This document shows, piece after piece, positions 12,588 to 30,401 of a DNA stretch of 49,009 nucleotides. The stretch is taken from positions 1 through 49,009 of the forward strand of contig JBDROH010000019.1 of NCBI GenBank assembly GCA_043810285.1, written 5' to 3'. Made by a program: the position numbers and the translations under genes. The DNA is from an archaeon. Its GTDB lineage: Archaea; Nanobdellota; Nanobdellia; Pacearchaeales; GW2011-AR1. Every line of letters begins with the position of its first letter. Within the stretch, counting starts at the first letter, position 1. The notes beneath the pieces were generated by a model. That model ran no database searches. It was not told where the DNA came from and worked only from the letters and a program-made list of their open reading frames with translations.

Positions 12588-13340
12588 CTAATGTCTAAAC
12601 AACCTAGTAAAAAACCCTTGTTTTTTCTCAATATTTTCTCCAGCAATTTTTCGAGCAATTTCACAATATTTTTTAGCAACCCTACTTCGAGGATGAGTAT
12701 GGACAACAGCATCCCTTAAATTCAAAGCTTCTTTTACAGCAAAATCCTCTGGAACAACACCAATAATTTGGGATTCTAACATTGACTTTATAGAAGGTAA
12801 CGACATTTCATATTTCGCACCCCTATGTTGAGTAATAATAACTCCATTAATCTCTTTTCCCATCTTCCTAGCAACCTTAACAGCCTTTAATGCATCCGTA
12901 ACCGAAGGCATCTCTGGATTAGTTACAATGATAATTTCATCAGCAGCCTCAATAGAGGCAATAACCTCTTCGCCAAATCCTGCCGCTGAGTCAATGATAA
13001 CATATTCACACATAGTTCCCAACTCTTGCGCAATCCCAGGGATTTTCTTTGTGTTAAACTTTGTAAGTTCCTCAATAGAAAGTGAAGAAGGAACAATCTT
13101 AGTTCCAGAGGAATGTTCATAGATTGCATCCTCAATATTGGCAGTTCCTTTTAAAACATGGTTTAACGTTACTGGAACAATCGGAGCCCCAAGTTGAAGA
13201 CCAATATTAGGCGTGTTTAAATTAGCATCGACAATGATAACATCTTTTCCTAATTTATTCAAAGATACTCCAAGATTAATTGCAGTAGTGGTTTTACCAA
13301 CACCGCCTTTCCCTGAATTTATAACTATTATTCGCGCCAT
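12588..13340 (-). CDS. minD: MinD/ParA-family P-loop ATPase
   Basis: Deviant Walker A in IVINSGKGGVGKTTTAINLG, and DxD in VIIDSAAG. Confidence 0.85.
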   Translation of the reverse strand: MARIIVINSGKGGVGKTTTAINLGVSLNKLGKDVIIVDANLNTPNIGLQLGAPIVPVTLNHVLKGTANIEDAIYEHSSGTKIVPSSLSIEELTKFNTKKIPGIAQELGTMCEYVIIDSAAGFGEEVIASIEAADEIIIVTNPEMPSVTDALKAVKVARKMGKEINGVIITQHRGAKYEMSLPSIKSMLESQIIGVVPEDFAVKEALNLRDAVVHTHPRSRVAKKYCEIARKIAGENIEKKQGFFTRLFRH

Positions 13341-13393: not shown

Positions 13394-13837
13394 TCAATCT
13401 GAAAGAATTAGTTTCACTTTATTAATAAATCTCTCGACAATTTCAGCATATTCTCCTAGTTTTTCCATATCAATTTCTGTAGTTTTCGTTAGCTCAATTA
13501 CATTCAAACCAACATTCTTTCTAAATTCTCCTCTCCTAGTTTTGTTTAAATCAGGAACTCTTTTAAAAAAAATATATAATGGAATCACTGCTTGAATTTC
13601 TTCCGATTTTTTAAAATAAGTTTTCATGAACTCCACCCGCTGTTTTGGACTTTCTGGAGTATGAGGTATCTTACCAGTCCCAACACCTTCCTCGAGCAAA
13701 GCGTCAAAACTAATCTCAATCAAACTTTTCCACCGAGCCAGTAAATTTAAAATTACATCACAAGTTTTTGTATATTTTAAACTAACATATAAGAGATGAT
13801 CGGCACTCGTCTTTTCTTTTATAATATCTTCAATCAT
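13394..13837 (-). CDS. hypothetical helical protein, likely a paralogue of the upstream ORF. The start is taken at an internal ATG.
   Basis: ORF, with weak collinear similarity to 13881..14336. Confidence 0.45.
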   Translation of the reverse strand: MIEDIIKEKTSADHLLYVSLKYTKTCDVILNLLARWKSLIEISFDALLEEGVGTGKIPHTPESPKQRVEFMKTYFKKSEEIQAVIPLYIFFKRVPDLNKTRRGEFRKNVGLNVIELTKTTEIDMEKLGEYAEIVERFINKVKLILSD

Positions 13838-13880
13838 AATTCGCAACCTTTCAGTGGAAAAGATCAAGTGAATGACCTTT

Positions 13881-14336
13881 TTATATGTGTCGAAAATTTC
13901 TAGGAAATACTGCAACACCTTTTTTTATAGATTCAATAAGTTCTCCAATCCTCATTACAGTTAGAAATCTATACCTTCCCTGGATTAATAAAATAATCTT
14001 CCCATCCTTAGCATACTCAATTGGAGAATATTTCTGCGCCCGCTCAATTTCAAGAACCTTAAACAAGTTCTCACAAGTCAATTTATCTAAATATTTTGGA
14101 GCTACAGTTTTCATAAAAATATTGATATTTTTCAAACTATTCCTTCCCCTAAAACCTTCATAAATTAAAAAAGCCTTAATCAAACTTGAAACTGCCTTAG
14201 CTAATTCATTAATTACTCCTACGAGAAACCTCTTATCAGGGAATTCACTATAACCCCTATACATTCTATCTGCCACGGCTAAATGATACTTTGCATTAAT
14301 TAGTTCTTCATTAAAATCTCTCATTCCATAACACAT
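13881..14336 (-). CDS. hypothetical helical protein
   Basis: ORF only. Confidence 0.45.
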   Translation of the reverse strand: MCYGMRDFNEELINAKYHLAVADRMYRGYSEFPDKRFLVGVINELAKAVSSLIKAFLIYEGFRGRNSLKNINIFMKTVAPKYLDKLTCENLFKVLEIERAQKYSPIEYAKDGKIILLIQGRYRFLTVMRIGELIESIKKGVAVFPRNFRHI

Positions 14337-14949: not shown

Positions 14950-15008
14950 TTTATATATTAACTTTCATCTATTTAATTAGACAAAATTATTAATAACGAA
15001 AAGGAGGT
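14950..15008 (+). promoter_or_regulatory. pilin gene control region: TATA-like tttatatat (14950-14958) plus Shine-Dalgarno aggaggt (15002-15008)
   Basis: Unlike most genes here, the TATA-like box is ~58 nt from the ATG and a strong SD is present. This implies a leadered mRNA. Confidence 0.45.
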
Positions 15009-15011
15009 AAA

Positions 15012-15443
15012 ATGAATAATAAAAAAGGACAGGCAGCTTTAGAGTTTTTAATGACTTATGGTTGGGCAATTCTTGCCGCTATTATAGTTATTGGTGCTTT
15101 AGGCTCATATTTCTACTTTAATCAAACAGGCTCTAGTTCTATATTTGTAAATGCGCCATTCTATGGTGTTGCATCCAGTGCATCAGAGGATACGGTAAAT
15201 TTAGAAATTATGAATAAAGGTGGAGAAACATTAAGTTCAGTAACTGTGAATATAACTGGGAAAGGTTGTACTCAAGATACGAGTTTTGATGGAACATCAA
15301 AAGCCGCACAGATTGTAACTCTAACTTGTACTGATGCAAATTCAGGGACTACTTTTTCAGGAGATGTAGTTATAACTTATCTAAGACCTGGAAGTTCACT
15401 TCCATTAACATCTACAGGATCAGTCTCAGCACCAGTAGCATAA
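15012..15443 (+). CDS. archaeal type IV pilin (class III signal peptide), candidate major pilin
   Basis: N-terminus MNNKKGQ/AALEFLMTYGWAILAAIIVIGAL (KGQ-A..EFL class III/DUF361-type signal). Strong SD aggaggt at 15002-15008. Confidence 0.8.
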   Translation: MNNKKGQAALEFLMTYGWAILAAIIVIGALGSYFYFNQTGSSSIFVNAPFYGVASSASEDTVNLEIMNKGGETLSSVTVNITGKGCTQDTSFDGTSKAAQIVTLTCTDANSGTTFSGDVVITYLRPGSSLPLTSTGSVSAPVA

Positions 15444-15468
15444 ATTTATTTATTTATTTTTATTTTTC
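15444..15468 (+). terminator. T-rich tract downstream of the pilin gene, a candidate archaeal oligo-T terminator
   Basis: atttatttatttatttttattttt lies immediately after the stop codon. The downstream gene is convergent. Confidence 0.35.
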
Positions 15469-15505
15469 CTCTAATCGAGGAAGTTTTTAATAATGGCAAG
15501 GGTTA

Positions 15506-16369
15506 CTATGTAGATTTAAAACGATCTAACTTCCCAGAATAAGGTTTAGAAGAAAGTTCAATTCCAATGTTTTTACGAATACTATACGGAAAAATCTTTG
15601 TCGAATGTTTAGTTCCCCTCATTTTATAAACTTCTAGAAATCTTTCTCTCGTCCTATTCAACCTAGTAAAATAAAGAAAAATCAACGAATCAGCTTCGAA
15701 CTCAAGAACTCTTGAAGATTGCTTTTTGTCAATTAATGGGTCTCTCTCATAAACTAAAAGTGAGGTGCATGTCCAACCTTTAAGAAGAGAAAACAAACCT
15801 AATGCTTGCTCTCGCATTTCAACATCACGTTCAAACAGCATTACAAATGTAGTTATACTATCCATTACAATTCGCTGAACTTTCTTACTTAACACAATCA
15901 TCTCGATATCTCCTCCACCTTCATCTAACATCGTCTTTATCTTTCCAGGAGTATACGATAAAAAGAAAAACTTTCCGGACTTTTCATATTTTTCCAAATC
16001 CCACCCAAGCTCCAACATGTTTCTATAAAAATCTTTTTTCTTTTCCTCAAAAGCAACATATAACACACCCTCGCCTCGCCTTAAACCTTCCATCAAAAAC
16101 TGCATTGCAAAGATAGATTTTCCATTTCCGCTTCCCCCAACAATAAGATTCGTAGAATTTTTTTCAAATCCTCCGCCAATAATTTTATCTAAATTTTTAA
16201 TCCCTGTAGGAACTCTTTCAATACTCTTCTTTTTTGAATTTTTATGTAACCCCGCTTTATATTTAACGTTTTTAATTATTTCCTTGAATTTTTTAAAAGG
16301 TATTCGTTTAGATTGAATATTTCTCTTTACATCCACTTTTCTTTTCCTTGCCTTTTTTTTATTCGCCAT
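15506..16369 (-). CDS. KaiC/RecA-superfamily ATPase (ArlH/FlaH-like) with a Lys-rich N-terminal tail
   Basis: VPTGIKNLDKIIGGGFEKNSTNLIVGGSGNGKSIFAMQFL..GEGVLYVAFEE matches the KaiC-like single-domain pattern. Confidence 0.8.
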   Translation of the reverse strand: MANKKKARKRKVDVKRNIQSKRIPFKKFKEIIKNVKYKAGLHKNSKKKSIERVPTGIKNLDKIIGGGFEKNSTNLIVGGSGNGKSIFAMQFLMEGLRRGEGVLYVAFEEKKKDFYRNMLELGWDLEKYEKSGKFFFLSYTPGKIKTMLDEGGGDIEMIVLSKKVQRIVMDSITTFVMLFERDVEMREQALGLFSLLKGWTCTSLLVYERDPLIDKKQSSRVLEFEADSLIFLYFTRLNRTRERFLEVYKMRGTKHSTKIFPYSIRKNIGIELSSKPYSGKLDRFKST

Positions 16370-16404
16370 ATTTTCTTTTAATAAAACATCTATAAAAACT
16401 TATG

Positions 16405-17331
16405 CTAGCCCGTAAGACCTGTGATAACTCCAGATAATATTTTCCCTACTGCAAGGAAAATACTCAAACTTAAAATGAGCATTATTGGGAGATATCTTAA
16501 CCCTTCTTTTTCATTCCCCTTACCTACAAGTCCCAAAACAAGTGAAGCCATAATATTCATTACAATTATGAATACTATAGAAAAATAAAAAACAAAATCA
16601 ATAGATATATTTATCGTCGAGAAAGATACTGGAAGATTCTGGGGTAAAGATTCTAGACTAATGCCTCCCATAAGATTTGTCATAGTTTCAACTAAAATTC
16701 CTGAAAGCGAGAAGAGTCCTGGGGCAAAAATTGAGACTGCTAAAAATATAAATATAACATACATTAACACTTGAGAAGCAGCTTTCTTTTCGATAAACTC
16801 TCTTTGTCTCATATTTCTAGAAGTCTCTTCTAATAAAATTGCTAAATTCCCTCCTGCACGAATTCCAGAAAAAATTATCAGAAAAGTTTTCTCAACTTTT
16901 TCAGAACCAATTCTACTGGACATAAATTTTAATGCAAGCTCCACTGGTTTTCCCGTAGAAATATCTTTTCCCGTCCGGAGGATTTCTTCATCAAGAGGAG
17001 CGAATTCTGGTCGAGAACTCAAAAGGATAGCCCTATCTATTGTCATTCCAGCCCTTAGATTGCTCGCAACCAATTGTAAGAAGTCCGGAAAAACTCCTTC
17101 TATCTTTGTTATTCTGGCAGATTTCTTCAAGGAAGTCATAAACTTAAAAGTTAAAAACGCTACTGTAAACGCTACTGCAAAAACCACTCCTGCTGAAAGA
17201 AGATTTCCATAAATAGCAAACACAATCAGGCTAATAAGCATCGCAATTATTCCTGTAATTCCTACATTTTTTCTTTCAATCATAATCTCCTCCTTACTCA
17301 ATCTAATCTTAATCTTTTTTTCAAGACTCAT
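16405..17331 (-). CDS. T2SSF-domain platform membrane protein (TadC/FlaJ-half-like)
   Basis: FPDFLQLVASNLRAGMTIDRAIL...GKPVELALKFMSSRIGS...IRAGGNLAILLEETSRNMR plus flanking TM segments. Confidence 0.7.
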   Translation of the reverse strand: MSLEKKIKIRLSKEEIMIERKNVGITGIIAMLISLIVFAIYGNLLSAGVVFAVAFTVAFLTFKFMTSLKKSARITKIEGVFPDFLQLVASNLRAGMTIDRAILLSSRPEFAPLDEEILRTGKDISTGKPVELALKFMSSRIGSEKVEKTFLIIFSGIRAGGNLAILLEETSRNMRQREFIEKKAASQVLMYVIFIFLAVSIFAPGLFSLSGILVETMTNLMGGISLESLPQNLPVSFSTINISIDFVFYFSIVFIIVMNIMASLVLGLVGKGNEKEGLRYLPIMLILSLSIFLAVGKILSGVITGLTG

Positions 17332-18209
17332 AATAAGCTCGGCCTCTTTGATTTAATTAAACCTAAAAAGATTATCTGAAAAACAAAAACAAAAACAAAA
17401 AGTCCAAGAAATATTCCCATCGTAAGATTTTCCTCAAGACCTATCATCGAGGCGATAACTGTAATGAAACTAACTGACAATGCAGGAACGATTACAGATG
17501 TTAACATATACATCATAACTAGTGGATTCAACTTATTCCCATAATTTTGAATCTGAATCATTTGTTCTTCGTTCAACATTTTTATATTCTCTCTTATAAT
17601 CATAGACATATCACTTCCAGCATTTAATCCGTTGCTGATTTGCCAAAGAGTTCGTTTAAATAAAACGGAATAGCTCCTTGCACTAATGTCTGCCAGAACC
17701 TCTGCTTCCGGTTCTCCTGAACCAATTTTCTTAACTACCTTCTTAAATTCAACACTTAACTCCCCATAATCAGAACCAGAGATATTGGTCAAAATATCAA
17801 ACAAGGGAATTCCAGAATCCAACTGAATTAAAATATCTTCTAACGCAAATATAAGATTCTTCTCAATATCTTTCTCCTTTTTAGAAACAAATACTCGTGG
17901 ATAAGCGAGCTGACTGAATGAGACAGATATCGCAAAGATAAAAGCAAGACCAAAACTTAAGATATAAAATAGATTTATACCTATAATCACAAAAATCGCA
18001 TTAAATAAAAAAAATAAAAACACAAATAAATTTACAAAAGATTTAAGGACAATTCCAAGATATTCTTCACGAGTTAAATTAACATCGACTCCTTTAAGGT
18101 ACTCTCCCAAGGAAGACTCTTTCTTATGTCTAAATCTCGAAGAAAAAAATTTCGCATTAGCCTTTAACCTTGTTATAGTGGAGGTTGTAAAAGGAATTAT
18201 AAATTTCAT
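17328..18209 (-). CDS. T2SSF-domain platform membrane protein (TadB/FlaJ-half-like)
   Basis: LEDILIQLDSGIPLFDILTNIS...GSGEPEAEVLADISARSYSVLFKRTLWQISNGLNAGSDMSMIIRE. 4-nt overlap with the downstream gene. Confidence 0.7.
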   Translation of the reverse strand: MKFIIPFTTSTITRLKANAKFFSSRFRHKKESSLGEYLKGVDVNLTREEYLGIVLKSFVNLFVFLFFLFNAIFVIIGINLFYILSFGLAFIFAISVSFSQLAYPRVFVSKKEKDIEKNLIFALEDILIQLDSGIPLFDILTNISGSDYGELSVEFKKVVKKIGSGEPEAEVLADISARSYSVLFKRTLWQISNGLNAGSDMSMIIRENIKMLNEEQMIQIQNYGNKLNPLVMMYMLTSVIVPALSVSFITVIASMIGLEENLTMGIFLGLFVFVFVFQIIFLGLIKSKRPSLL

Positions 18210-18298
18210 TAGTGGAAATTTTTAGATTTTTGATCAGTAAGAACTGTTTCATTACATAATCTTGACCTAACTACCTCCGAGGTTTTAGTTATCATCTC

Positions 18299-19846
18299 TT
18301 AATTCTCCTCTTTAAACATCTTCACATTGTTTTGCCTAATCTCTTTAAGAAGGTTGTCTTTATTTGAATAATAATGATTCATTACTTTTCCAAAATTTTT
18401 CAAACTTCTTATTTTATTTTTCATCAACCAGGTTATGATATGCCTTTTTTCTTCAAGATTCTTTTCTAATTCTGCTTGAGTCATCCCTGTATTTTTTGAT
18501 ATCTCTTCAAAAAATCTTGAGCTTTCCGAATGCTTAATAATCTTATCAACTTCAGGAATCCATCTATAAATGATATTAGCTTCTGCTCTGTCTCCGCTAG
18601 TATTAAATTCAGCAACTTGAAATACTCGTCTTATTCCCTTCCGCCTATCCCTAAACATAACAACATTCAAATTTACTGCATTAAGAAGATTCGCAGGAAT
18701 ACTCAATGGAGGGTTTATCAGTCTGGAGATAGTTTCTGTCGCGGAATTTGCGTGCATTGTAGCATAAACCGAATGACCTGTATGCATTGCCTCAAACAAT
18801 ACCATCGCTTCTTCTTTCCGTCTCATCTCTCCCAAAACAATCCTGTCTGGCCTCATTCTCAGAGAATTAACAAGAAGATCAAGCATAGTAATCGCACCCT
18901 TTCCTTCCGGATTTGCACTTCGAGTGACCAAGGGAGTCCAATATAAAAATTCTGGAAGCATTAATTCTCGAGTATCTTCAACACTGATCACTCGATGATT
19001 TGGTGGGATAAAAGGCATACATGCATTAAGAAGAACTGTCTTTCCCGACGCTGTACCTCCAGAAATAATAACATTCATTTCATATTCTACTGCAAGCCAT
19101 AGCAGTGCCGCAACTCCTAAATCACAAGTTTTGTTCTCAATCAAATCAACAATAGTATACGGGTCTCTTGCGAATCTTCTAATAGTTATAGTATTTCCCT
19201 TAGTGCTAATAGGATAAAGCACGGCATTAACTCTATCTCCCGAAACTAAATGTGCATCAAGTAAAGGACTTAGAACTGTAATCTGTCTTCCAACTCTTCT
19301 TGCAGTAATATTTGAATAATTAATAATTTCATCTTCTCGATTTATAGTAAGATTTGTCGGAAGCCAACCATACTTTTTATGAAAAATCATTATAGGTTCT
19401 TTTGAAGATGGAATTACAATTTCTTCTAAATTAGAATCATTAATCAAAAACTCAATTTCTCCCAAACCCAACATATCCTGCATCAACTTATTAACGAGAA
19501 TTTTCTTGGTCTCCGGAGCAAGAGTAGGAATCTTTCTTTCAAGAAGATCTTCTGCCTCCTTCACGAATTTTTCCCTAATAGCATCAACAGCATTTGGGTC
19601 AACAATTTCTCTCATTCCTACCGTCGTAGCAGTAATTAAATCATTTCTAATATCCTCAAGCAAAACCTTCGTAGCAAGATTAATCTCTGGAACTTTTAGA
19701 TTATAAGTTGTTCTAGTTTCATCTTTTTTTATTTCAACATTTATATCGATTGACTTAGCTGAGGTTATTACATAACTCTCAAGAACCTCTTTCTTAAAAA
19801 AAATCTTCTCTTCCAACTTTTTAACTATATTAACTTTGCCTTTCAT
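18299..19846 (-). CDS. type IV filament assembly ATPase (FlaI/PilB/VirB11 family)
   Basis: Walker A in ISGGTASGKTVLLNA, then VISVEDTRELMLP, RMRPDRIVLGEMR and the His box EAMHTGHSVYATMHA. Confidence 0.9.
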   Translation of the reverse strand: MKGKVNIVKKLEEKIFFKKEVLESYVITSAKSIDINVEIKKDETRTTYNLKVPEINLATKVLLEDIRNDLITATTVGMREIVDPNAVDAIREKFVKEAEDLLERKIPTLAPETKKILVNKLMQDMLGLGEIEFLINDSNLEEIVIPSSKEPIMIFHKKYGWLPTNLTINREDEIINYSNITARRVGRQITVLSPLLDAHLVSGDRVNAVLYPISTKGNTITIRRFARDPYTIVDLIENKTCDLGVAALLWLAVEYEMNVIISGGTASGKTVLLNACMPFIPPNHRVISVEDTRELMLPEFLYWTPLVTRSANPEGKGAITMLDLLVNSLRMRPDRIVLGEMRRKEEAMVLFEAMHTGHSVYATMHANSATETISRLINPPLSIPANLLNAVNLNVVMFRDRRKGIRRVFQVAEFNTSGDRAEANIIYRWIPEVDKIIKHSESSRFFEEISKNTGMTQAELEKNLEEKRHIITWLMKNKIRSLKNFGKVMNHYYSNKDNLLKEIRQNNVKMFKEEN

Positions 19847-19850
19847 TTAA

Positions 19851-20612
19851 TCACCGCTTTTTGGATTTCTTCTCAATCTTTTTTATTTTCTTAATCTTTT
19901 TATTCATTTTTCTAGCCCTTTTCTCAGCTTGTTTCCTAATCTTTAGAATTCTTTTCATATCTTTTTTAGAGATAACTTTCTTAACTGAAACAAATTCTTT
20001 ATGGGAAGAATTCTTAATCTCCTCTTCCACCTTTTTTTGCTCTACATTCTTTATTTTCATAACATTATCTTTAGATAAAGATTCATCTCGATTACCCTCC
20101 TCTAATAATCTCAAAACTGGTCGTCCAAACCCAGGGTAATCAATCATCGCAAGATCTCCATTTTCTAATATCTTGGACCACTCCAAAGCAATCTCTGGAT
20201 TAACCTTGAATACCTTTCCAATATCCCCTATGTCTATTTCCTTTTTATGTTTTAATATTTCATATAAAGTATCAAGGTCAGTTCTAGATTTAGTACTCTT
20301 TTTATTTATAAAATCATTCTTCAATAATTTTTTCTTCGATTTTAATTTTCTAACAATTATAAAAAAAGATATAACAATTACCAATAGCAAGAGGAATTGA
20401 AATGCTATAAATATCCTATGATTCACCGAACTCACCTCATAAAACCCTCCGATTGTTTCTCCAATAGAATTTCCCGATATAAGATTTATAGGATTCTCAA
20501 CTTGGTAAAGAAGATACGCACCATTGACTATAACTAAAAACACGACCATCCAAACTCCGGTAAAAACTATATCTCCTTCTTTTATCATTTTAGTAATATC
20601 CTCATAGTTCAT
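19851..20612 (-). CDS. membrane protein with a cytoplasmic winged-helix-like module and a poly-Lys tail. It is the first gene of the ATPase operon, and its start is uncertain.
   Basis: Two TM segments, then LDTLYEILKHKKEIDIGDIGKVFKVNPEIALEWSKILENGDLAMIDYP. The C-terminus is KKIKKIKKIEKKSKKR. Confidence 0.5.
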   Translation of the reverse strand: MNYEDITKMIKEGDIVFTGVWMVVFLVIVNGAYLLYQVENPINLISGNSIGETIGGFYEVSSVNHRIFIAFQFLLLLVIVISFFIIVRKLKSKKKLLKNDFINKKSTKSRTDLDTLYEILKHKKEIDIGDIGKVFKVNPEIALEWSKILENGDLAMIDYPGFGRPVLRLLEEGNRDESLSKDNVMKIKNVEQKKVEEEIKNSSHKEFVSVKKVISKKDMKRILKIRKQAEKRARKMNKKIKKIKKIEKKSKKR

Positions 20613-20696
20613 AAACTCTCAATTTTATAAAGATATTGTTTAATAAAATCAATAAGAACTTTTATTAATCTAATCTTCTAACTAGGCAGGTAAGAG

Positions 20697-21131
20697 ATGG
20701 TATCATTTAAAGAGAAAAATGCACAGTCAAGTATGGAGTTTTTAATCTTGATGGGATTTCTAACATTTGTTATAATTGGGATTTTAGGTATCGGGTATTC
20801 TTATAGTGGTACTACAAATGATAGAATCAAGTCAGGTCAAATTAATAGCTTCGCAAATAAGATTATATCGACTTCTGAAACGGTGTTTTATGCAGGAGAA
20901 CCCTCAAAAGCAACTATTTCTGTACGTCTTCCAGACGGAGTTCAAGATATAGAAATAATCAACGATACTCTCGTAATCACATACTATTTAGCAACAGGAC
21001 AAAATAAGATTTCTTTCTCAAGTAATGTTCCTATAGCTGAGAGCTCTACGGAAGAAATTTCTTCAGTTTCAGGTATAAAAAATTTGATTATTGTCGCTAA
21101 TTCAACTCACGCAGTAATATCTCAAAATTAA
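20697..21131 (+). CDS. pilin-like protein with a class III signal peptide
   Basis: KNAQ/SSMEFLILMGFLTFVIIGIL. Confidence 0.7.
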   Translation: MVSFKEKNAQSSMEFLILMGFLTFVIIGILGIGYSYSGTTNDRIKSGQINSFANKIISTSETVFYAGEPSKATISVRLPDGVQDIEIINDTLVITYYLATGQNKISFSSNVPIAESSTEEISSVSGIKNLIIVANSTHAVISQN

Positions 21132-21132
21132 A

Positions 21133-21528
21133 ATGGAGTACAAAAAAGCTCAAGTCAGCGTAGAGTTTATTATTATCCTTGGAACGGTCTTCTTTTTTGC
21201 TTCAATCTTTCTCTTAGTGATTCAAGAGAATATGAATGATAAAACATATCAAAGAGAGAATCTTTTGGTAAAAGAAATTGCATTAATAGTCCAGGACGAA
21301 ATCAACCTTGCACTTCAATCAGGAGACGGATACCTCAGAGAATTTGAACTCCCTCAAAAGGCTGGAAATATAGACTATGAAGCTAATATAGAATCAGGAA
21401 TTGTCTATATCAAAACAATAGATAATCGTCATGCACTAACTCTTCCAGTAGCCAATGTCGTAGGAGATGTAAACATAACAATGAATATAATTAAAAAAAT
21501 TGATGGAGTAATTTATCTTAACGCATGA
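21133..21528 (+). CDS. pilin-like protein with a class III signal peptide
   Basis: KKAQ/VSVEFIIILGTVFFFASIFLLV. Confidence 0.7.
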   Translation: MEYKKAQVSVEFIIILGTVFFFASIFLLVIQENMNDKTYQRENLLVKEIALIVQDEINLALQSGDGYLREFELPQKAGNIDYEANIESGIVYIKTIDNRHALTLPVANVVGDVNITMNIIKKIDGVIYLNA

Positions 21529-22034
21529 GAATTGAAAAAGGAGGACAAATATGGGGTTTTGATATTTTAACAGGAATAGTACTCTTCTTAGTAGGGATAA
21601 TTGTGTTCTTTGTCTATTCTTTAAATCAACCTAGTGAAGCTCAAGATAATTTTGAATTCCTTTTTTATGATGGAAAAATTATCGCAGATAATTTAATGTC
21701 TTCAGGTTATCCCCTTGATTGGAACTCAAGTAATGTAATCACTTTAGGAATTAGTAGCGAAGATAAAATTAATGAAACCAAACTAGAAAGACTCTATGAA
21801 ATGATTTATACCGAAAATAACTATACACTCACAAAAACTTTATTTAACACACAGTACGACTATTATTTTTTCTTAGACCAAAATATGACAATCAATTCTA
21901 TAGAAGTCGAAGGAATCGGAAAGCCTGGAGTTACAAAAGATAATATAGATGCGAGAAATCTTATCAAGATAACTAGGTTTACCATTTATCAAAATAAAAC
22001 TACCTCACTTTATATTTACATATGGGAAGAATGA
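21525..22034 (+). CDS. pilin-like or minor-pilin candidate with an N-terminal hydrophobic helix
   Basis: EKGGQIWGFDILTGIVLFLVGIIVFFV. ATGA overlap with the preceding gene. Confidence 0.55.
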   Translation: MRIEKGGQIWGFDILTGIVLFLVGIIVFFVYSLNQPSEAQDNFEFLFYDGKIIADNLMSSGYPLDWNSSNVITLGISSEDKINETKLERLYEMIYTENNYTLTKTLFNTQYDYYFFLDQNMTINSIEVEGIGKPGVTKDNIDARNLIKITRFTIYQNKTTSLYIYIWEE

Positions 22035-24544
22035 AAATAAAAGCTCAATTTTTTACGATAGATGCACTGATTGCGTTAATGATAATCTTGATAACAATTA
22101 TGATAGCATTGCCGATACTAAATCAGTCACAACAAGATTCTTCAGTTTCCAAAGATATTTTACAATCATTGGGTTCATTAAAAATTGGAGAACTTGATAA
22201 CAATTATTCAAGACAGCTAATAGATCAAGGATATATCTTGGATCCCGCTAAATCAGTCATAGACCAAATAGGTGAGTTTTATATAACCAACATAACTATC
22301 GCAGAAAGATTAAGTGAGGAGGTTTTGTCTTCGGTAAATCCTAATGAAAACATAGGAATATGGTATGGTAGCAAACTTCTAGCTTCTAAAAATATAACTC
22401 CTCTTGAAACCGCAGAAAATATTTTTACCGAAAGACAAGTAATTAGTGGAATAGGTGGGGGAGATGGAGTCACAGGATTCTCGGCAAGGGCATTTCTTTC
22501 AAGTAATGTCAGAACAAATTATATTTATTTTGGAGGTTACGTCGGAGAAGGAAATATAAGTGTATTAATTGATTATCAAGGAGGTATAAGTGCTGCAAAA
22601 ATAGAACTAGTTGTAAACAATGACTTTGAAGTTTACATCAATGGAGTAAGCTCTGGAAGCTTTTCAAAATCAGTAGATGATTTCACTCCAGTAGACTATA
22701 GTCTCAACACAACTAACTTTACCTCTGGACAAAATATTGTAGAAATAAAAGGTACCAACTTACATGTAACTGGAGGATTCATCAAAATTACTTATGACAG
22801 TTATGTTACTTATGAACAACCAACAAGATACTATTTCCCTGGAATATCTGGAATCATCAATCTTTATGACGGGTTTTATGTCCCTGGAAACCTAACTGGA
22901 TTAAGCATCTCAATTCATTTCAACAATTCCGTAGATACATTCCTAAACATTGGAGGTACACAAGTTTTCAACGGTTCCTCTGAAGGAGAAGTAATTACCA
23001 TAACAAACTTGACACTTGCCTCATTACTTAATTATACCGAGTTAAGCAAAAAAACCATTCCATTAAGATTCGGAATGGAAAATGTAAATTATGTTACAAA
23101 CAACACTCGAGACATTGATGTTTTTTCTGTTACAGATATATCTGGAAGTATGTTGCCAAGTTGTAGCGGAGTAAGTCCATGGTATTGTTGTTGGTTTAAA
23201 GACTGTAGTACTGAAGTGGGATGTGCAAGTTGTGGAGGAACTCTCGAAAATAAAATTCAAGATGCCAAGGACGCTAATAACCTATTTATTGATATGATTC
23301 TCAATGCTACAGGCAACAGAGTAGGATTATCTGCTTACTCAAGTAGTGCATTAGATTCAAACTATCATCCCCTCTCAAATAATAATGTTTCCCTAAAATC
23401 TGAAGTTGGTTCTTGGAGTGCAGACGGATTAACTTGTATTTGTTGTGGAATAAATAAAGCAGTCACAGGAATCTTAGCGGATTCAACAATAGATAAATTT
23501 CAATCTATTGTAATAATGAGTGATGGGGATGCAAATGTGCAATGTTCAGAACAAGGAACTGGAAATGCGAATCAAGATGCTATACAATCTGCTTGTGATG
23601 CTTACAACGACCACGGAATAAAAGTTTATACAATTGGATTTGGAGAAGCGGCTAATGTGCAAACCCTCACAAGTATGGCTTCCTGCGGTAACGGTAGTTT
23701 CTACAGCGCCATTGATAACTTAGCAGATATATATGAGAAAATCGCAACAGAATTAATAGAGACAGCATATTACGAACAAACTATTGAGGTTACGGGAGAT
23801 TTCTTTTCACAACTTTATCCCGACTCCTATATCGAATTTGACTATGCAAAAGAAAATCCCCCAATAGGGCTCATCACAACAATAGAAAAACCATTTTCAA
23901 CATCTGATGGAGGAACCTTTGACATACCAGAAAATTCTGTACCTTTAGAAGCAAATGTAATCTCTTATTCAGGACCTAAATGGACGAGCAACGTAAATCT
24001 AAACGGTAATAATATTTTTAACTTAAGTAGTTATGAAACAGAATTCCTAAAACTTGGAGACCCCTATACAATAAATATACCTCTATCACTTATTCAAAAC
24101 AACAATACCTTAGAATTAAACACCGGTCTCTCATCATCAAACACTAGCACAGGGTCAATTAGCAATAAGATTATTTACACAATATCTAAGAAGCTGGCAT
24201 CTTATACTTCCGTCTCAGCTACCGCCGAAGGATGTAGTTGGAGTGTCCAATTTAATGAGTATAATTTAACAATGTTAATTCCAAATGATTATCAAGGTTC
24301 TACAAATTGCAATTACGGAGATTCAAGCACCGAAGGAATATATTGCGGAATTTATTCTGAATGTGAGGGAGCAACTGATGCAGTACAAATCGCAGTTTAT
24401 AATATTTTCAAACTATTAGATTTCGATTCCGACGGTAAATTAGATGTAGATCTTTCTGAGGACGACCTACAGATTAGCACATCAAATTTAGAAGGAGTCC
24501 CCTTTCTTTTTTCAACGGAGGTACAAGTTAGAAAATGGTATTAG
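22022..24544 (+). CDS. large pilin-like surface protein with a von Willebrand factor A domain, a candidate tip adhesin
   Basis: N-terminus KIKAQ/FFTIDALIALMIILITIMIAL. vWA MIDAS DISGS at 23135-23149. Also VGLSAYSS, IVIMSDGDAN, VYTIGFG, and many N-x-S/T sequons. Confidence 0.8.
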   Translation: MGRMKIKAQFFTIDALIALMIILITIMIALPILNQSQQDSSVSKDILQSLGSLKIGELDNNYSRQLIDQGYILDPAKSVIDQIGEFYITNITIAERLSEEVLSSVNPNENIGIWYGSKLLASKNITPLETAENIFTERQVISGIGGGDGVTGFSARAFLSSNVRTNYIYFGGYVGEGNISVLIDYQGGISAAKIELVVNNDFEVYINGVSSGSFSKSVDDFTPVDYSLNTTNFTSGQNIVEIKGTNLHVTGGFIKITYDSYVTYEQPTRYYFPGISGIINLYDGFYVPGNLTGLSISIHFNNSVDTFLNIGGTQVFNGSSEGEVITITNLTLASLLNYTELSKKTIPLRFGMENVNYVTNNTRDIDVFSVTDISGSMLPSCSGVSPWYCCWFKDCSTEVGCASCGGTLENKIQDAKDANNLFIDMILNATGNRVGLSAYSSSALDSNYHPLSNNNVSLKSEVGSWSADGLTCICCGINKAVTGILADSTIDKFQSIVIMSDGDANVQCSEQGTGNANQDAIQSACDAYNDHGIKVYTIGFGEAANVQTLTSMASCGNGSFYSAIDNLADIYEKIATELIETAYYEQTIEVTGDFFSQLYPDSYIEFDYAKENPPIGLITTIEKPFSTSDGGTFDIPENSVPLEANVISYSGPKWTSNVNLNGNNIFNLSSYETEFLKLGDPYTINIPLSLIQNNNTLELNTGLSSSNTSTGSISNKIIYTISKKLASYTSVSATAEGCSWSVQFNEYNLTMLIPNDYQGSTNCNYGDSSTEGIYCGIYSECEGATDAVQIAVYNIFKLLDFDSDGKLDVDLSEDDLQISTSNLEGVPFLFSTEVQVRKWY

Positions 24545-25467
24545 GAAAAAGGGGGATGATTTTCACAATAATCACAATAACTCTATTGTCGTTATTTGCA
24601 GTTTCATATGGTGCATACAATTTAATCCAAGACCGTTCTGCGATAAACAAACGGATAAATACTCTCAATAATTTCGTCGCTTCTGTTGAACAAGATTTAC
24701 CACGACAAGTATTCATTTCAGGTTATCGGGCAGTATTTTTATTTGATAAAAAAATCTTGGACACAGGTTCTTATATAAATAATGTAAACTCCTCATTAAA
24801 TGAAATTTTTTTTAATGGCACTCTCGACGGAGTTCATCAAGATTTAATGGAAGATGCAACCTTCACAGCTATGCAAAACTTCCTAGCTGGAAATGCTAAC
24901 AAGATTAATGCAGATATAGAACTTCTAAATCCGGAAATAACTCTGACACAAGAAGACCCTTGGAATCTAAAAGTTGTTTTAAACATCACACTTATAATTG
25001 AGGACAGGGGAAAGTTAGTTAGCTGGAATCGATCAGCATTAATAGAATCTTATATCCCTATAAAAGATTTTGAGGACCCTATTTATTCTACAAACACTTT
25101 CGGAAAGGTTACTAATAAAATAAATCAAACACCTTATTCTACCTTTGTAACTGAAGGAGATTATACAAACCTTACATCGCATTTTGGAAATTCTTACTAC
25201 ATCGCATCAACGTCAGCTCCAAGTTTCCTAAACAGATTACAGGGAAATTTAATTGCAAATCAAAATGGAATAGAGTCATTAGTCAATCCTCAAAAATTAA
25301 TTGACCAGGGAATTTCGGTGAAATATAAATCGGTCGTAGACTATATTTACTTTTCATCAGATGATCCTCAAAAATATACGGTTCCTACAATAAGTAATTT
25401 AATTTTAGATAACGAAGACAATCATTTAGCAACATACAATGTTTCGGGAGTAGCAGTTCCAGTTTAA
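24535..25467 (+). CDS. pilin-like or filament-associated protein with an N-terminal hydrophobic helix
   Basis: KRGMIFTIITITLLSLFAVSYG. 10-nt overlap with the vWA gene. Confidence 0.55.
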   Translation: MVLGKRGMIFTIITITLLSLFAVSYGAYNLIQDRSAINKRINTLNNFVASVEQDLPRQVFISGYRAVFLFDKKILDTGSYINNVNSSLNEIFFNGTLDGVHQDLMEDATFTAMQNFLAGNANKINADIELLNPEITLTQEDPWNLKVVLNITLIIEDRGKLVSWNRSALIESYIPIKDFEDPIYSTNTFGKVTNKINQTPYSTFVTEGDYTNLTSHFGNSYYIASTSAPSFLNRLQGNLIANQNGIESLVNPQKLIDQGISVKYKSVVDYIYFSSDDPQKYTVPTISNLILDNEDNHLATYNVSGVAVPV

Positions 25468-27044: not shown

Positions 27045-27329
27045 CTATCCTTTCAATCCTCTAAGGGTTCCAGAAACGTTCTCAATCTTAATTCCTGCCA
27101 ATGCCAATGCTGTCCGAACATTCTCTAAAGATTTTGTTAAACAACTCCCCACTAATCTTTCTGGAAAATCTTTAGTATTAATTTTCATATAAGCCGATTT
27201 CGCAAATCCAAGCACCCCGATATATTCCAAAATAGCAGATTCAACTTTTTCATTAGTTGTTCTAACTAGGAAATATCTTCGCTTATCTCTCGCCGAGGGT
27301 TTAAGATTTAGTTTTTTTCCTTTTACCAT
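27045..27329 (-). CDS. rnp2: RNase P protein component Pop5/Rpp14-like (short)
   Basis: KPSARDKRRYFLVRT resembles the Pop5 N-terminal strand. Canonical position upstream of psmA in the archaeal exosome/proteasome superoperon. Confidence 0.55.
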   Translation of the reverse strand: MVKGKKLNLKPSARDKRRYFLVRTTNEKVESAILEYIGVLGFAKSAYMKINTKDFPERLVGSCLTKSLENVRTALALAGIKIENVSGTLRGLKG

Positions 27330-30108
27330 GTTTCTTTTTCTTCTTTTCTAAAGGCTTTTCTATTTTTAATTTTTTCCTATTTAGTTTAAGGATAATAAGA
27401 CCAACGAAGATAAAAATAATAGCTAAGACGATTACTATTGATGAATAATCCTTAACAATAATTGGCTCAGTTTCTACAATTTCTTCTTCTGTAATAACTT
27501 CAATAACCTTAATCTCAATAGGTTCATTAATCAACTGGATTATCAACTCTACCTCTTCAGCAACTATCTTGTTTACCTTGATAAATAAATCATAATAACT
27601 CTTCGAGGTTAAATTCAACTTAACAGATTGTCCAATACCTAACATTAAATTTATTGGGTCACTCTCGATAATAATATTGACGTAATCGACTCCAACTTCA
27701 TTAATAGTTAATAAATGTCGGCCACCCTCAAAATCAAAAATACTAAAGTTTACTTTTTCATTATTCTTTAAACTCTTGGTATAACCTTTTGAAATTTCAG
27801 ATACATTAACTTCATAAATTTGGGGTTCGGTTGAGCTAATTGTAATACTTCCTCCACCGCCTCCGCCCCCACTAGAACTACTAACAACTATTGGAGCAGT
27901 TATAGTAAAACTATTTTCCTCGGAAGAGTTCACATTTCCTGCCTGGTCGCTGCAATTAATTGTCCAAGGATAAGTTCCGGGGGTAAATACTTGGCTGAAT
28001 AATTGGGTTAAGGAGTTATTTATTGAATAGTTAGTCAGATTAATTTCTCCACTAATAATCAAACTACAATTAGCAATATTGTCGTCGGAGATATTAAAAC
28101 TAAAAGTTCTCGAAATTGAATCTGAAGTCGCACTAGCAGGTAAACTTATCAATGTCAGATTTGGAGTAGTAATATCATAAACCCCGCTAAAATTATTAGC
28201 ACCCCAAGATTCATTTGATATATTGTTCACCCCTAAACAATTCCATGAATAATTTCCTTCTGTGAGAAAAGTGTAATTGAAAATTGTCGTATTATCAAAG
28301 TTAGAAATATTTGTTGTTAAACTATAATTCAAACTCCCGCTTGAATTCCACAAATAAAACGTTACATTACTTAATTCGTTATTCGCGTCGGAAAGAGCTT
28401 GGCAACTAAAATTGGTGTCATTGATATTTGTATAGCTTCCATTAGAAGGCAATAGTAAGTTCACAGAAAGCCCTCCAATTGTTAAACTATAATTTGTTGG
28501 AGCATATGCTGAGTTGCCTTCTATGTCTGTAGATAAACAGTTCCAAGAGTAAGTATCCTCGCTCATATTCGTTAAGTTAAATGAAGTTTCATTCGCTGTT
28601 CCCGTTAAATTTTTCGTTTTGTTATAGTATAACTCTGTCGAGTTCCAAACATATAATGTTAAATTCGCTAGTTGCCAGTCTGTAGCGTTGCAGGTGAAAG
28701 TTTGGTTATTGGTTAGATTGATATGGTTATTAATTGGAGAGACTAATGTTACATTCGGGGCGTCGACGTCTAGGGAAAGAATGGCGGAGTATACGTCAAT
28801 TCTTGAATAATTTAATCCGCTTCCAGAAGTGTCGTCGATTAATACTCCTGTTTGATTAAATGCAGTTTCAATTTCTTGGGGAGTCATTAATTGATTTGTC
28901 AAGTTTAAAAATTGATTAAGGATTGCTATCGCTCCTGCCACCATTGGTGCTGCCATCGATGTTCCGGAAAATGAGATATATGCTCCATCCTTATAAGTTG
29001 AACATATCCTAGTGGCGTCCATACTTCCTGGAGAACAACTTCCACTTCCTCCAAATGTTCCTCCTGTTGCAAATAATTGGACCAGACTATTCCTGTTTGA
29101 AAATGATGAAACTCCGTCAGATTTTGTTGATGAAGATACAGGTATTGAATTTTCGATACATGCAGGAACTCCAATATGGGTTGTGTTCCCTTCATTTCCA
29201 GAAGACACGATAACTGAAATATTCTGGGCAACTGCAGAATCAATAGCATTTCGTAAGGTTGCAAATCCTGGTTCAGAATCACAATAATCGTCTATTAAAA
29301 TGCTTTCACAAGGATCTCCTTCACATAATCCTATACTCATTGTAATCACAGAAATATTATATGCCGAGGCATTAGCTACACACCTATCAATTGCAGAAAC
29401 TATCATATCTGTAGTTCCGCTTCCAACATCTGTAAAAACTTTCATTGAAACAATGTTAACATTCGGAGCCATCCCAAAGATTCCTCCTGATGCTCCAACG
29501 ATTCCTGTGACATGTGTCCCGTGTCCATGATAATCCATGGGGTCACTATCATCATTTCCGAAGTCATATCCTCCTATAACTCTCGAACAATTCCCTGCAA
29601 GAAAACTTTCAGTTGAGCAACCCCCTAAATCTGGATGGGAATAATTAACTCCCGTATCGAGAATACAAACACTTTGACGAATCCCTGTGAGGTTTAAAGA
29701 ATTAATTTGCTTTGGCCAAATAGAACTCGCATTTGTTATGCTGACGGCATCGTCCAATAAAAGCTTAATAGGATAATTATAACTTATCTCTTCCACATAA
29801 TTTTCCTTTGAAAGATATTCGATGTCCTCTTCTGTAAGTTCTGCAGAGAATGCGTTTGAAGAGCTAAACTCATTCTTTATTTTTTTGTCTAGCTGGCTCA
29901 TTATTTTATTTTTGTTTAAGGTATCCATCATAGAAATTACAACATTGCCACTTTCTTTATCTTTTAGTTTAACAATTACATCTACAGTTTTTTCATCTTC
30001 TAATTGCTCTGAAACTTTATCACTTATTTTTTCATCTAAAGAATTTTGAGAACTAACTATCGTTAAGAGCAATATAAGAATTGTAAAAAAACAGAAACCA
30101 AATTTCAT
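27301..30108 (-). CDS. secreted, membrane-anchored subtilisin-like (S8) serine protease with three Ig-like repeats
   Basis: Signal peptide. Catalytic triad contexts are ILDTGVNYSHPDL (Asp), HGTHVTGIV (His) and GTSMAAPMVAG (Ser). Three repeats end in Y(S/P)W(T)(I)NC. It also has a G7 linker, a C-terminal TM segment and a poly-Lys tail. Confidence 0.9.
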   Translation of the reverse strand: MKFGFCFFTILILLLTIVSSQNSLDEKISDKVSEQLEDEKTVDVIVKLKDKESGNVVISMMDTLNKNKIMSQLDKKIKNEFSSSNAFSAELTEEDIEYLSKENYVEEISYNYPIKLLLDDAVSITNASSIWPKQINSLNLTGIRQSVCILDTGVNYSHPDLGGCSTESFLAGNCSRVIGGYDFGNDDSDPMDYHGHGTHVTGIVGASGGIFGMAPNVNIVSMKVFTDVGSGTTDMIVSAIDRCVANASAYNISVITMSIGLCEGDPCESILIDDYCDSEPGFATLRNAIDSAVAQNISVIVSSGNEGNTTHIGVPACIENSIPVSSSTKSDGVSSFSNRNSLVQLFATGGTFGGSGSCSPGSMDATRICSTYKDGAYISFSGTSMAAPMVAGAIAILNQFLNLTNQLMTPQEIETAFNQTGVLIDDTSGSGLNYSRIDVYSAILSLDVDAPNVTLVSPINNHINLTNNQTFTCNATDWQLANLTLYVWNSTELYYNKTKNLTGTANETSFNLTNMSEDTYSWNCLSTDIEGNSAYAPTNYSLTIGGLSVNLLLPSNGSYTNINDTNFSCQALSDANNELSNVTFYLWNSSGSLNYSLTTNISNFDNTTIFNYTFLTEGNYSWNCLGVNNISNESWGANNFSGVYDITTPNLTLISLPASATSDSISRTFSFNISDDNIANCSLIISGEINLTNYSINNSLTQLFSQVFTPGTYPWTINCSDQAGNVNSSEENSFTITAPIVVSSSSGGGGGGGSITISSTEPQIYEVNVSEISKGYTKSLKNNEKVNFSIFDFEGGRHLLTINEVGVDYVNIIIESDPINLMLGIGQSVKLNLTSKSYYDLFIKVNKIVAEEVELIIQLINEPIEIKVIEVITEEEIVETEPIIVKDYSSIVIVLAIIFIFVGLIILKLNRKKLKIEKPLEKKKKKHGKRKKTKS

Positions 30109-30401
30109 CTAACAACACACTCTCCATCAACGTATTCGCAAGATTCAATCTGACAATTAAACATTGCGATGCAGACTCCATTTTCAAGACATTCAGATAA
30201 ATTTTCCTTATATTTTGTAACTTCACTGGCTAAAACACATTGCTCTTCACCACCCATATTGCATGGACAACAAGTAGTTTGAATTTTCACACATTCTATC
30301 GATTCTTCATTTAAATTGGTCTCTCCAACAAACCAAAAAAATCCCACGACTAGTAAAATTCCTGCGATAACAATCATTCCAATCAATCCTTTTTTATCCA
30401 T
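30105..30401 (-). CDS. small signal-anchored Cys-rich protein (10 Cys in ~70 residues)
   Basis: TM segment GLIGMIVIAGILLVVGFFWFV followed by ECVKIQTTCCPCNMGGEEQCV...CLENGVCIAMFNCQIESCEYVDGECV. 4-nt overlap with the protease gene. Confidence 0.5.
   Translation of the reverse strand: MDKKGLIGMIVIAGILLVVGFFWFVGETNLNEESIECVKIQTTCCPCNMGGEEQCVLASEVTKYKENLSECLENGVCIAMFNCQIESCEYVDGECVVR

Follow-up and report, generated by a model that had tools for sequence, protein, structure and literature searches.

What kind of machine is encoded by the eleven genes at positions 15012-25467 of contig JBDROH010000019.1 (GenBank assembly GCA_043810285.1), and what may the cell, an archaeon of the Pacearchaeales, use it for? 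We refer to the whole stretch of DNA that was analysed, i.e. all 49,009 nucleotides (nt) of it, as the window, and an earlier note, made from the sequence alone, had singled out this locus as the most plausible machine for cell-cell attachment or host interaction in the window. Our analysis supports this, the locus being clearly the window's candidate for a surface or attachment machine. The locus bears on a problem that is largely unsolved, namely how DPANN archaea find their hosts and attach to them, and to our knowledge no member of the Pacearchaeota or Woesearchaeota has been cultivated. Our answer is that the locus is probably an archaeal type IV pilus of an Epd/Tad-like kind, which the cell would use probably for adhesion, plausibly to a host cell. 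The features of a type IV filament are present, i.e. an ATPase of the PilB/GspE/VirB11 family, platform proteins with T2SSF domains and class III-type pilins, and all eleven open reading frames (ORFs) were recovered in the ORF listing at the positions and on the strands given in the earlier note. The locus is composed as follows:

14950-15011, plus strand: putative promoter/leader of pilA, with a TATA-like TTTATATA at 14950-14957 and the Shine-Dalgarno sequence GGAGGT at 15003-15008
15012-15443, plus strand: pilA, 143 amino acids (aa), stand-alone pilin, candidate major pilin
15444-15490, no strand: convergent terminator region of pilA and kaiC; pilA is followed by a T-run and a terminator-like hairpin at 15465-15483 (consensus scan only, not evidence of function)
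15506-16369, minus strand: kaiC, 287 aa, single-domain KaiC-family ATPase with a K/R-rich N-terminal extension
16405-17331, minus strand: F2, 308 aa, TadC/EpdK-like platform protein with one T2SSF domain
17328-18209, minus strand: F1, 293 aa, TadB/EpdJ-like platform protein with one T2SSF domain
18299-19846, minus strand: ATPase, 515 aa, assembly ATPase of the PilB/GspE/FlaI family
19851-20612, minus strand: memWH, 253 aa, uncharacterised accessory protein; predicted are two transmembrane (TM) helices, a winged helix in the cytoplasm and a C-terminal helix rich in Lys
20613-20696, no strand: putative divergent promoter region of memWH and p144, with AACAATATCTTTATAAAAT upstream of memWH and TTTTATTAAT upstream of p144
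20697-21131, plus strand: p144, 144 aa, minor pilin
21133-21528, plus strand: p131, 131 aa, minor pilin
21525-22034, plus strand: p169, 169 aa, pilin-like protein
22022-24544, plus strand: vWA840, 840 aa, modular pilin-like adhesin with a von Willebrand factor A (vWA) domain and a metal-ion-dependent adhesion site (MIDAS)
24535-25467, plus strand: p310, 310 aa, pilin-like protein

The genes memWH, ATPase, F1, F2 and kaiC form a minus-strand operon, in which F1 and F2 overlap by 4 nt, and the genes from p144 to p310 form a divergent plus-strand operon. The latter five genes had been described as overlapping, which is true for three of the four junctions (4-13 nt), whereas p144 and p131 only abut (21131/21133). 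The locus is flanked by housekeeping genes, Sec61-beta and NAC on one side and SBDS and proteasome alpha on the other, and is thus sharply delimited. The domains that had been read from the translations were all matched in a Pfam check (T2SSE, PF00437; T2SSF, PF00482, in two proteins; KaiC, PF06745; VWA, PF00092).

That these genes belong together is evident from their relatives. A scan of one genome per GTDB species yielded 125 places with a relative of the ATPase, and 80 of them were fetched (ATPase identity 62-93%). All 80 loci lie in metagenome-assembled genomes (MAGs) of Pacearchaeota, Woesearchaeota or Nanoarchaeota (DPANN/Nanobdellati), the closest ones, with 93% ATPase identity, being from Nanoarchaeota and Pacearchaeota, which supports a DPANN-type archaeon as the carrier of the locus. 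When the presence of the eleven window proteins in the 80 loci was scored by tblastn, ATPase and F1 were found in all 80, F2 and memWH in 77 each, p144 in 66, p131 in 63, kaiC in 61, p169 in 53, vWA840 in 52, and pilA and p310 in 49 each. The shortfalls are mostly at contig ends, and 29 of the 35 loci with full flanks of ±10 kb contain all eleven genes. Gene order is conserved, too: memWH-ATPase-F1-F2 are collinear in all of 75 loci, kaiC directly follows F2 in 50 of 62, p131-p144 are divergent to memWH in 56 of 63, and p169-vWA840-p310 keep their order and strand in 46 of 48. Two arrangements occur, which differ only in the position of the p169-vWA840-p310(-pilA) block, i.e. beside p131 or after kaiC. 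No other gene family was found to be conserved around the locus in the relatives, where the neighbours are topoisomerase I, ribosomal proteins etc. The gene cluster is far from chance, and across their lineage these DPANN archaea stably carry the full set of pilus genes.

The motor and the platform are recognizable by their domains. The ATPase matches T2SSE with an E value of 3.3e-36 and, weakly, PilB3_C. Its best match in PDB is GspE from Archaeoglobus fulgidus (AfGspE; 2OAP, 239 bits, nearly full length), ahead of FlaI (190 bits) and CpaF (167 bits), and of the NCBIfam models the one for FlaI scores best (281 bits over the full length, cut-off 550), the TadA model reaching 181 bits. F1 (T2SSF, E 5.7e-14) and F2 (E 1.8e-15) are diverged paralogues with 20% sequence identity (hhalign 96%), and F2 aligns with positions 179-462 of the 465 positions of the ArlJ model, which is roughly its C-terminal two-thirds.

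Six proteins of the locus, i.e. PilA, p144, p131, p169, vWA840 and p310, share a short basic leader, a G or A at position -1 and a hydrophobic stretch. Projecting the N-termini of 47-57 orthologues per family onto the window proteins revealed K/R at -3 and -2 and G/A, rarely S, at -1 in all six families. Position +1 is an invariant Q in PilA, p144, p131 and p169, whereas vWA840 and p310 have I/V/M there; PilA, p144 and p131 share an invariant E at +5, and p169 and vWA840 an invariant D at +6. A Q at +1 is typical of Epd pilins rather than of archaellins. In profile-profile comparisons the six proteins fall into two groups, PilA/p144/p131 and p169/vWA840/p310 (N-termini related at 60-68%). The only recurring Pfam match on the N-termini is PF04021 (Class_IIIsignal, formerly DUF361), seen in 8 of 46 sampled sequences (E <= 0.01), and DUF361 pilins are the pilins that are processed by EppA in Methanococcus maripaludis (PMC10117864). 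The density of N-glycosylation sequons is 2.3-3.0 per 100 aa in the pilin-like proteins (3.0 in p169) as compared to 0.3-1.2 in the ATPases and membrane proteins of the locus, and the enrichment in sequons and Cys residues would fit an extracellular location.

For PilA the predicted cleavage site is MNNKKG/QAALEFLMTYGWAIL, with the slash marking the cut. G-1, Q+1, A+2, E+5 and F+6 are invariant or near-invariant in 49 orthologues, the mature N-terminus, QAA(M/L)EFLMTYGWAIL, is essentially invariant, and the first 25 mature residues are near-invariant. Over its whole length, PilA of most loci has no more than 36-50% tblastn identity with the window protein, and the globular C-terminal part is variable and β-rich and contains two conserved Cys residues. 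The family comprises at least 1352 clusters, some of the JGI entries being named 'UPF0333 family', and neither single-sequence nor profile searches identified relatives among the pilins and archaellins with solved structures in PDB. p144 (predicted site ...KNA/QSSMEF) and p131 (MEYKKA/QVSVEF) are paralogues (hhalign 96%), and Q+1 and E+5 are invariant in 57 orthologues of each. A strict class III pattern was passed by 49 of 49 PilA, 45 of 57 p144 and 35 of 57 p131 sequences. The N-terminus of p169 (...KGG/QIWGFD; Q+1, W+3 and D+6 conserved in 48 orthologues) resembles that of vWA840 (hhalign 68%), and p310 (MVLGKRG/MIFT; K/R-2, G-1 and FFT at +2 to +4 conserved in 47 orthologues) belongs to no family found in Pfam.

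vWA840 combines such an N-terminus with a VWA domain (E 3.4e-7, residues 419-568). Its MIDAS residues, D372-x-S374-x-S376, T471 and D501, are either invariant or conserved to at least 90% in an alignment of 60 sequences, in which about a dozen Cys residues are conserved as well; the window protein contains 16 Cys residues and 20 sequons. vWA840 belongs to a family of at least 580 clusters whose only annotation is 'VWA domain-containing protein'. In the AlphaFold2 model (mean pLDDT 83.5, pTM 0.54) an N-terminal helix (residues 13-33) and a small helical region are followed by a β-sandwich (110-350), the vWA domain (365-581) and C-terminal β domains. Foldseek matches are extracellular vWA proteins, i.e. 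ITIH1, BatB, the anthrax-toxin receptor, the pilus tip protein Mfa5 and the adhesin LapA, and also the minor pilin PilB from Streptococcus sanguinis (PDB 7B7P, E 8.6e-10). About 5% of the orthologues listed are longer (1000-1136 aa; P0083, P0097, P0102, P0106, P0115 and P0117). Each of the four long ones that were scanned has an extra module (three of them have a ConA/LamG lectin, and likewise three the Cys-rich DUF4215), and in P0115, the one that was aligned, some 300 aa are inserted inside the vWA domain, between the helix 473-487 and the strand 493-500, the insert lying between residues 484 and 491 of the window protein. A pilin-anchored vWA/MIDAS protein is a concrete candidate for host attachment, and as a MIDAS adhesin whose lectin modules can be exchanged it might help to determine the host range. 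A literature search combining DPANN, type IV pili and von Willebrand yielded nothing relevant; its coverage was incomplete, so that an earlier description of a vWA pilin or of memWH is possible.

The remaining two proteins, the product of kaiC and memWH, are a candidate regulator and a candidate scaffold or regulator, respectively. The KaiC-family protein (E 1.6e-57 and 195 bits with the Pfam domain) scores 198 bits with KaiC in PDB, 109 with PH0186 (about 100-109 for PH0186/PH0284), and 29 and 25 with FlaH/ArlH. It consists of one KaiC domain, which aligns with both halves of the two-domain circadian KaiC, and the Walker A motif GxGK, the FEE glutamates, the DS of Walker B and KMRGT.HS are conserved in 62 sequences. 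The K/R-rich N-terminal extensions of the KaiC orthologues are 7-52 aa long, in one case 122 aa, and the KaiC and memWH tails (loci L001-L080) are conserved in composition, not in sequence. memWH belongs to no Pfam or NCBIfam family. AlphaFold2 predicts two TM helices, a helix-strand-helix-helix-wing domain at residues 112-169 (pLDDT about 88-92) and the Lys-rich C-terminal helix (whole-model pTM 0.36), and Foldseek matches to the winged helices of MarR and ESCRT-II are weak (E about 1e-3). An exhaustive profile search gave 1120 representatives of the family at E <= 1e-3 (about 1100 at 50% identity), many of them only about 165 aa long and devoid of the Lys-rich tail. memWH stands for a large, unnamed family of membrane proteins with a predicted winged helix, and the KaiC-family regulator would be a further testable part of the system.

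The putative expression signals set pilA apart. Among the eleven genes it alone has GGAGGT directly in front of the ATG (ending 4 nt before it, as read from the sequence); p310 has one about 12 nt upstream. The region in front of pilA may act as promoter and leader. An element, AACAATAYCTTTATAAAAT (minus strand, window 20613-20660), lies immediately upstream of memWH and recurs in L006, L010, L013, L021 and L052. It is probably the B recognition element (BRE)/TATA of the ATPase operon, and owing to its position just upstream of memWH the leader would be very short.

Based on these findings we propose that a prepilin peptidase, encoded elsewhere in the genome, would cut the six prepilins after the (K/R)(K/R)(G/A) leader. 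The hexameric PilB-family ATPase would dock on a heterodimeric F1/F2 platform, similar to TadB/TadC and EpdJ/EpdK, and would drive the polymerisation of PilA, which would be the main fibre subunit, with the paralogous pair p144/p131 serving as low-abundance or priming pilins. The trio p169-vWA840-p310 may constitute a priming/tip complex that presents the metal-dependent (MIDAS) vWA adhesin, which in some lineages would carry an inserted ConA-like lectin at the tip. ArlH is a KaiC-like modulator of ArlI (PMC8978795), and by analogy the KaiC-family ATPase, co-transcribed after the platform genes, may modulate the assembly ATPase. Finally, memWH, which is encoded just upstream of the ATPase, i.e. 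in a position comparable to that of ArlX, may be a membrane-anchored scaffold or regulator at the base of the pilus.

Several points weigh against a pilus of this kind. No filaments have been seen on these cells so far. Moreover, a groundwater study using cryo-transmission electron microscopy, published as a preprint (10.1101/2020.05.14.094862), excluded DPANN archaea as the piliated cells via absent pili genes: DPANN genomes, it stated, lack components of type IV pili, and the piliated ultra-small cells were thus assigned to bacteria of the candidate phyla radiation (CPR), a premise that is contradicted by the 125 places in DPANN genomes. No prepilin peptidase (A24; PibD/FlaK/EppA) was found among the window ORFs of at least 90 aa (Pfam, E <= 1e-3 on the rest of the window), just as the earlier note had stated, and none was recognised when the multi-TM ORFs up to 10 kb to either side of the ATPase gene were inspected in the 80 relatives, the search covering the window and these flanks and not whole genomes. 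The multi-TM ORFs near the related loci were rejected as candidates as they look rhomboid-like and SpoIIM-like, not like A24 (by inspection, with no hidden Markov model). The description of the locus as complete-looking is thus justified for the eleven-gene set and not for the peptidase. As regards the signals, the match of PF04021 on p131 of the window stays at 19 bits, below the cut-off of 23.7 bits, and the signals of p169, vWA840 and p310 are non-canonical, with aromatic residues at +2/+3. At the true site the strict class III pattern is passed by 0 of 48 p169 and 1 of 47 p310 sequences, and vWA840 fails as well; these three N-termini would probably fail the strict FlaFind pattern, too, and the proteins may be uncleaved membrane anchors. 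The class III-like character that had been ascribed to the N-termini therefore applies to all six as far as leader, G/A at -1 and hydrophobic stretch are concerned, and falls short of the canonical form in p169, vWA840 and p310. The pTM of 0.54 makes the domain packing of vWA840 uncertain, and the roles proposed for the KaiC protein and memWH are drawn purely by analogy.

An extended version of the proposal appears rather unlikely to us. Here, vWA/MIDAS together with the variable lectin would make up a host-recognition pilus tip by which Pacearchaeota and Woesearchaeota search out and grip their hosts, and the KaiC protein and memWH would act as a phosphorylation-controlled switch on one bifunctional ATPase, which would both extend and retract the fibre; we know of no archaea that have PilT. 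If true, the locus would correspond, on the archaeal side, to the type IV pili that set off episymbiosis in Saccharibacteria.

Alternatively, the locus might encode a short pseudopilus or a surface-display machine, comparable to the bindosome (Bas) of Sulfolobus or to the piston of type II secretion, which would position or release surface proteins such as the vWA protein or the neighbouring S8 protease and would form no long fibre for adhesion. We consider this unlikely. The ATPase does match the model of the bindosome ATPase BasE over its full length, but the score of 135.7 bits is far under the cut-off of 1000 bits and below those of the FlaI, TadA and VirB11 models and of the PDB match AfGspE. 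Three of the six pilin-like proteins having atypical signals would suit a pseudopilus, whereas PilA, encoded on its own, with strong signals and an assembly helix that does not vary, bears the hallmark of a polymerised major subunit. Similarly, a large S8 subtilase and a small class III-like protein are encoded only 2 kb away, yet the relatives do not share the S8 gene as a neighbour of the locus, and the locus contains no substrate-binding proteins with class III signals.

Even less probable, in our view, is a pilus for DNA uptake of the competence type, in which the fibre would capture DNA from outside the cell and memWH and the Lys-rich tail of the KaiC protein would handle nucleic acid at the base and thereby feed a nucleotide-poor DPANN cell. 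Pili that import external DNA have been proposed for ultra-small groundwater organisms (PMC9938205), but neither in the window nor among the conserved neighbours is there a ComEC/ComEA-like channel or a DNA receptor. The predicted winged helix of memWH is of a DNA-binding (MarR-like) fold class and accompanied by a Lys-rich helix; however, the winged-helix matches are weak, as given above, and in ESCRT-II, for instance, the fold mediates contacts between proteins. The K/R-rich extensions of the KaiC orthologues would suit nucleic acid binding as well, but Lys-rich tails are common among low-GC DPANN proteins, and an architecture of vWA/MIDAS and lectin suggests that the ligands are proteins or glycans.

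Searches for archaellum components were negative. The six pilin-like proteins do not match archaellin or ArlF/ArlG families (Pfam, E <= 0.1; NCBIfam), archaellin families are absent from the window ORFs of at least 90 aa (Pfam, E <= 0.1), in agreement with the earlier note, and none of the ArlX and ArlC/D/E cytosolic ring families was found in the window, memWH having no detectable sequence relation to them (Pfam, NCBIfam). The archaellum equivalog scores and cut-offs, in bits, are 281 and 550 for FlaI, 60.6 and 215 for ArlH, and 31.5 and 400 for ArlJ. A reduced archaellum-like rotary motility organelle, in which the KaiC protein, the FlaI-like ATPase and the platform would mirror ArlH-ArlI-ArlJ, is therefore extremely improbable, for although FlaI is the best NCBIfam model for the ATPase and a KaiC-family gene lies in the same operon, every archaellum model remains far below its cut-off, archaellins as well as stator and ring genes (ArlF/G, ArlX, ArlCDE) are absent, the ATPase resembles FlaI less than it does AfGspE, which is non-archaellar, the platform is split, and the pilins carry the Q+1 of the Epd type. 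Judged by sequence, the locus is not an archaellum, as the earlier note had proposed in classifying it as a non-archaellum type IV filament, and the KaiC protein is no ArlH orthologue, so that of the label 'KaiC/ArlH-like' only the first half (198 bits) can be kept.

The surroundings of the locus deserve a few remarks. A ParA/MinD-type ATPase gene (12588-13340, minus strand) lies 1.7 kb upstream, and MinD/FleN is expected alongside archaeal pili of clades 1 and 2. We nevertheless rejected it as a component of the locus, as it is not conserved beside the locus in the relatives. Two overlapping ORFs of 174 and 151 aa (13394-14336, minus strand), located between the MinD-like gene and NAC, belong to no Pfam family. 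On the other side, 2 kb from the pilus locus, there is a second surface module (27301-30401, minus strand). It comprises a 935-aa S8 subtilase, with an I9 propeptide and Ig-like repeats as well as a poly-Gly linker and a TM anchor at the C-terminus, and, preceding it with a 4-nt overlap, a 98-aa Cys-rich protein whose N-terminus, MDKKG/LIGMIVIAG, looks class III-like. The window, which is archaeal, starts with the 3' end of the 23S rRNA (1-1194). Positions 2552-2987 of the Rfam model are spread across these 1194 nt and interrupted by an ORF (322-783, plus strand) for a LAGLIDADG homing endonuclease (PF00961, E 1.5e-12), which points to an rRNA intron with a homing endonuclease.

How does the locus compare with known systems? 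According to the census of Makarova et al. 2016 (PMC4858521), a clade 1 (Epd) pilus comprises two TadC proteins and an ATPase, with stand-alone major pilins, five or more minor pilins, large adhesins, EppA and MinD. A pair of tadC genes is found in many loci of clade 2, and KaiC-family ATPases accompany the loci of the archaellum, of clade 2 and of clade 4B. Neither the split platform nor the kaiC gene is thus novel in itself, and the earlier note's view that the composition is unusual does not hold in this respect: both features were already on record for euryarchaeal clade 1/2 pili, and type IV pilus loci of DPANN were described by Hamm et al. 2024 (PMC11291902). The census did not cover Pacearchaeota or Woesearchaeota; its vWA proteins are cytoplasmic regulators of the ArnB type, with bacterial TadG being mentioned as a pilus component, and it lists no membrane winged-helix partner (PMC4858521).

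With the Epd pili of M. maripaludis the locus shares the ATPase with two separate TadC-like platform proteins, the stand-alone major pilin, five minor pilins or more together with large proteins of an adhesin-like kind (PMC4858521), and Q+1 pilins with signals of the DUF361/PF04021 type (weak matches; the name 'UPF0333'). It differs in having a KaiC protein in the operon, instead of or besides MinD, in the presence of memWH, in the adhesin, which is of the vWA/MIDAS type here and contains DUF2341 in Epd, and in lacking an EppA peptidase in the locus; moreover, the best solved relative of the ATPase is from Archaeoglobus, a genus outside clade 1 as defined in PMC4858521. This similarity of the ATPase to AfGspE and the weak match to PilB3_C link the locus to euryarchaeal clade 2 (PilB3/PilC3-PilA and the PilB4 locus of Haloferax, GspE of Archaeoglobus), as do the two tadC genes and the KaiC-family ATPases found in many clade 2 loci. 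In contrast to clade 2, the pilin N-termini are of the Q+1/E+5 type, a modular vWA pilin and memWH have not been described there, and the signature minor pilin of clade 2, arCOG02911, was not identified in our locus.

Similarities extend to the bacterial Tad/Flp pili, i.e. a CpaF/TadA-like ATPase (167 bits with CpaF and 181 with the TadA model, all scores below the family cut-offs), a two-protein platform with one domain per protein, pseudopilins beside a small major pilin, and a membrane-anchored vWA protein, TadG (mentioned in PMC4858521). Unlike Tad/Flp, our locus contains a KaiC protein and a predicted winged-helix membrane protein, and as the system is archaeal, secretin, TadZ and TadD are absent. 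PilB from S. sanguinis (7B7P), a bimodular vWA minor pilin, likewise has a pilin N-terminus fused to a vWA/MIDAS module, but with vWA840 it shares only 14% identity, and vWA840 is twice as long, has an extra β-sandwich and C-terminal β domains, and starts with a non-canonical leader. The archaellum core ArlH-ArlI-ArlJ presents the same three protein superfamilies in one operon, whereas here none of the three reaches its equivalog cut-off and there are no archaellins, stator or ring proteins. A further comparison is with the two conserved type IV pilus loci that Hamm et al. 2024 (PMC11291902) reported across cluster 2 DPANN, including Pacearchaeota and Woesearchaeota, in a study that centres on coiled-coil proteins of Nanohaloarchaeota. 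By their description, these loci have CpaF, TadC and FlaF/PilA-like genes and a P-loop NTPase as well; in contrast, no coiled-coil sigma-1-like protein was recognised in our locus.

The gene content is not identical to that of any described class. The earlier note had made its case depend on this point and on the class III N-termini, of which three are non-canonical. The best reading is that of an Epd/Tad-like archaeal pilus with a DPANN-specific accessory set, i.e. the pilin-anchored vWA/MIDAS adhesin, the KaiC ATPase and the memWH family. Its distinctive parts are the pilin-anchored vWA/MIDAS adhesin, with lectin inserts in some orthologues, and the unnamed membrane family with its predicted winged helix. 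At the same time, the split platform and the TadG-like vWA protein link archaeal pili with the bacterial Tad system and bear on the origin of Tad pili.

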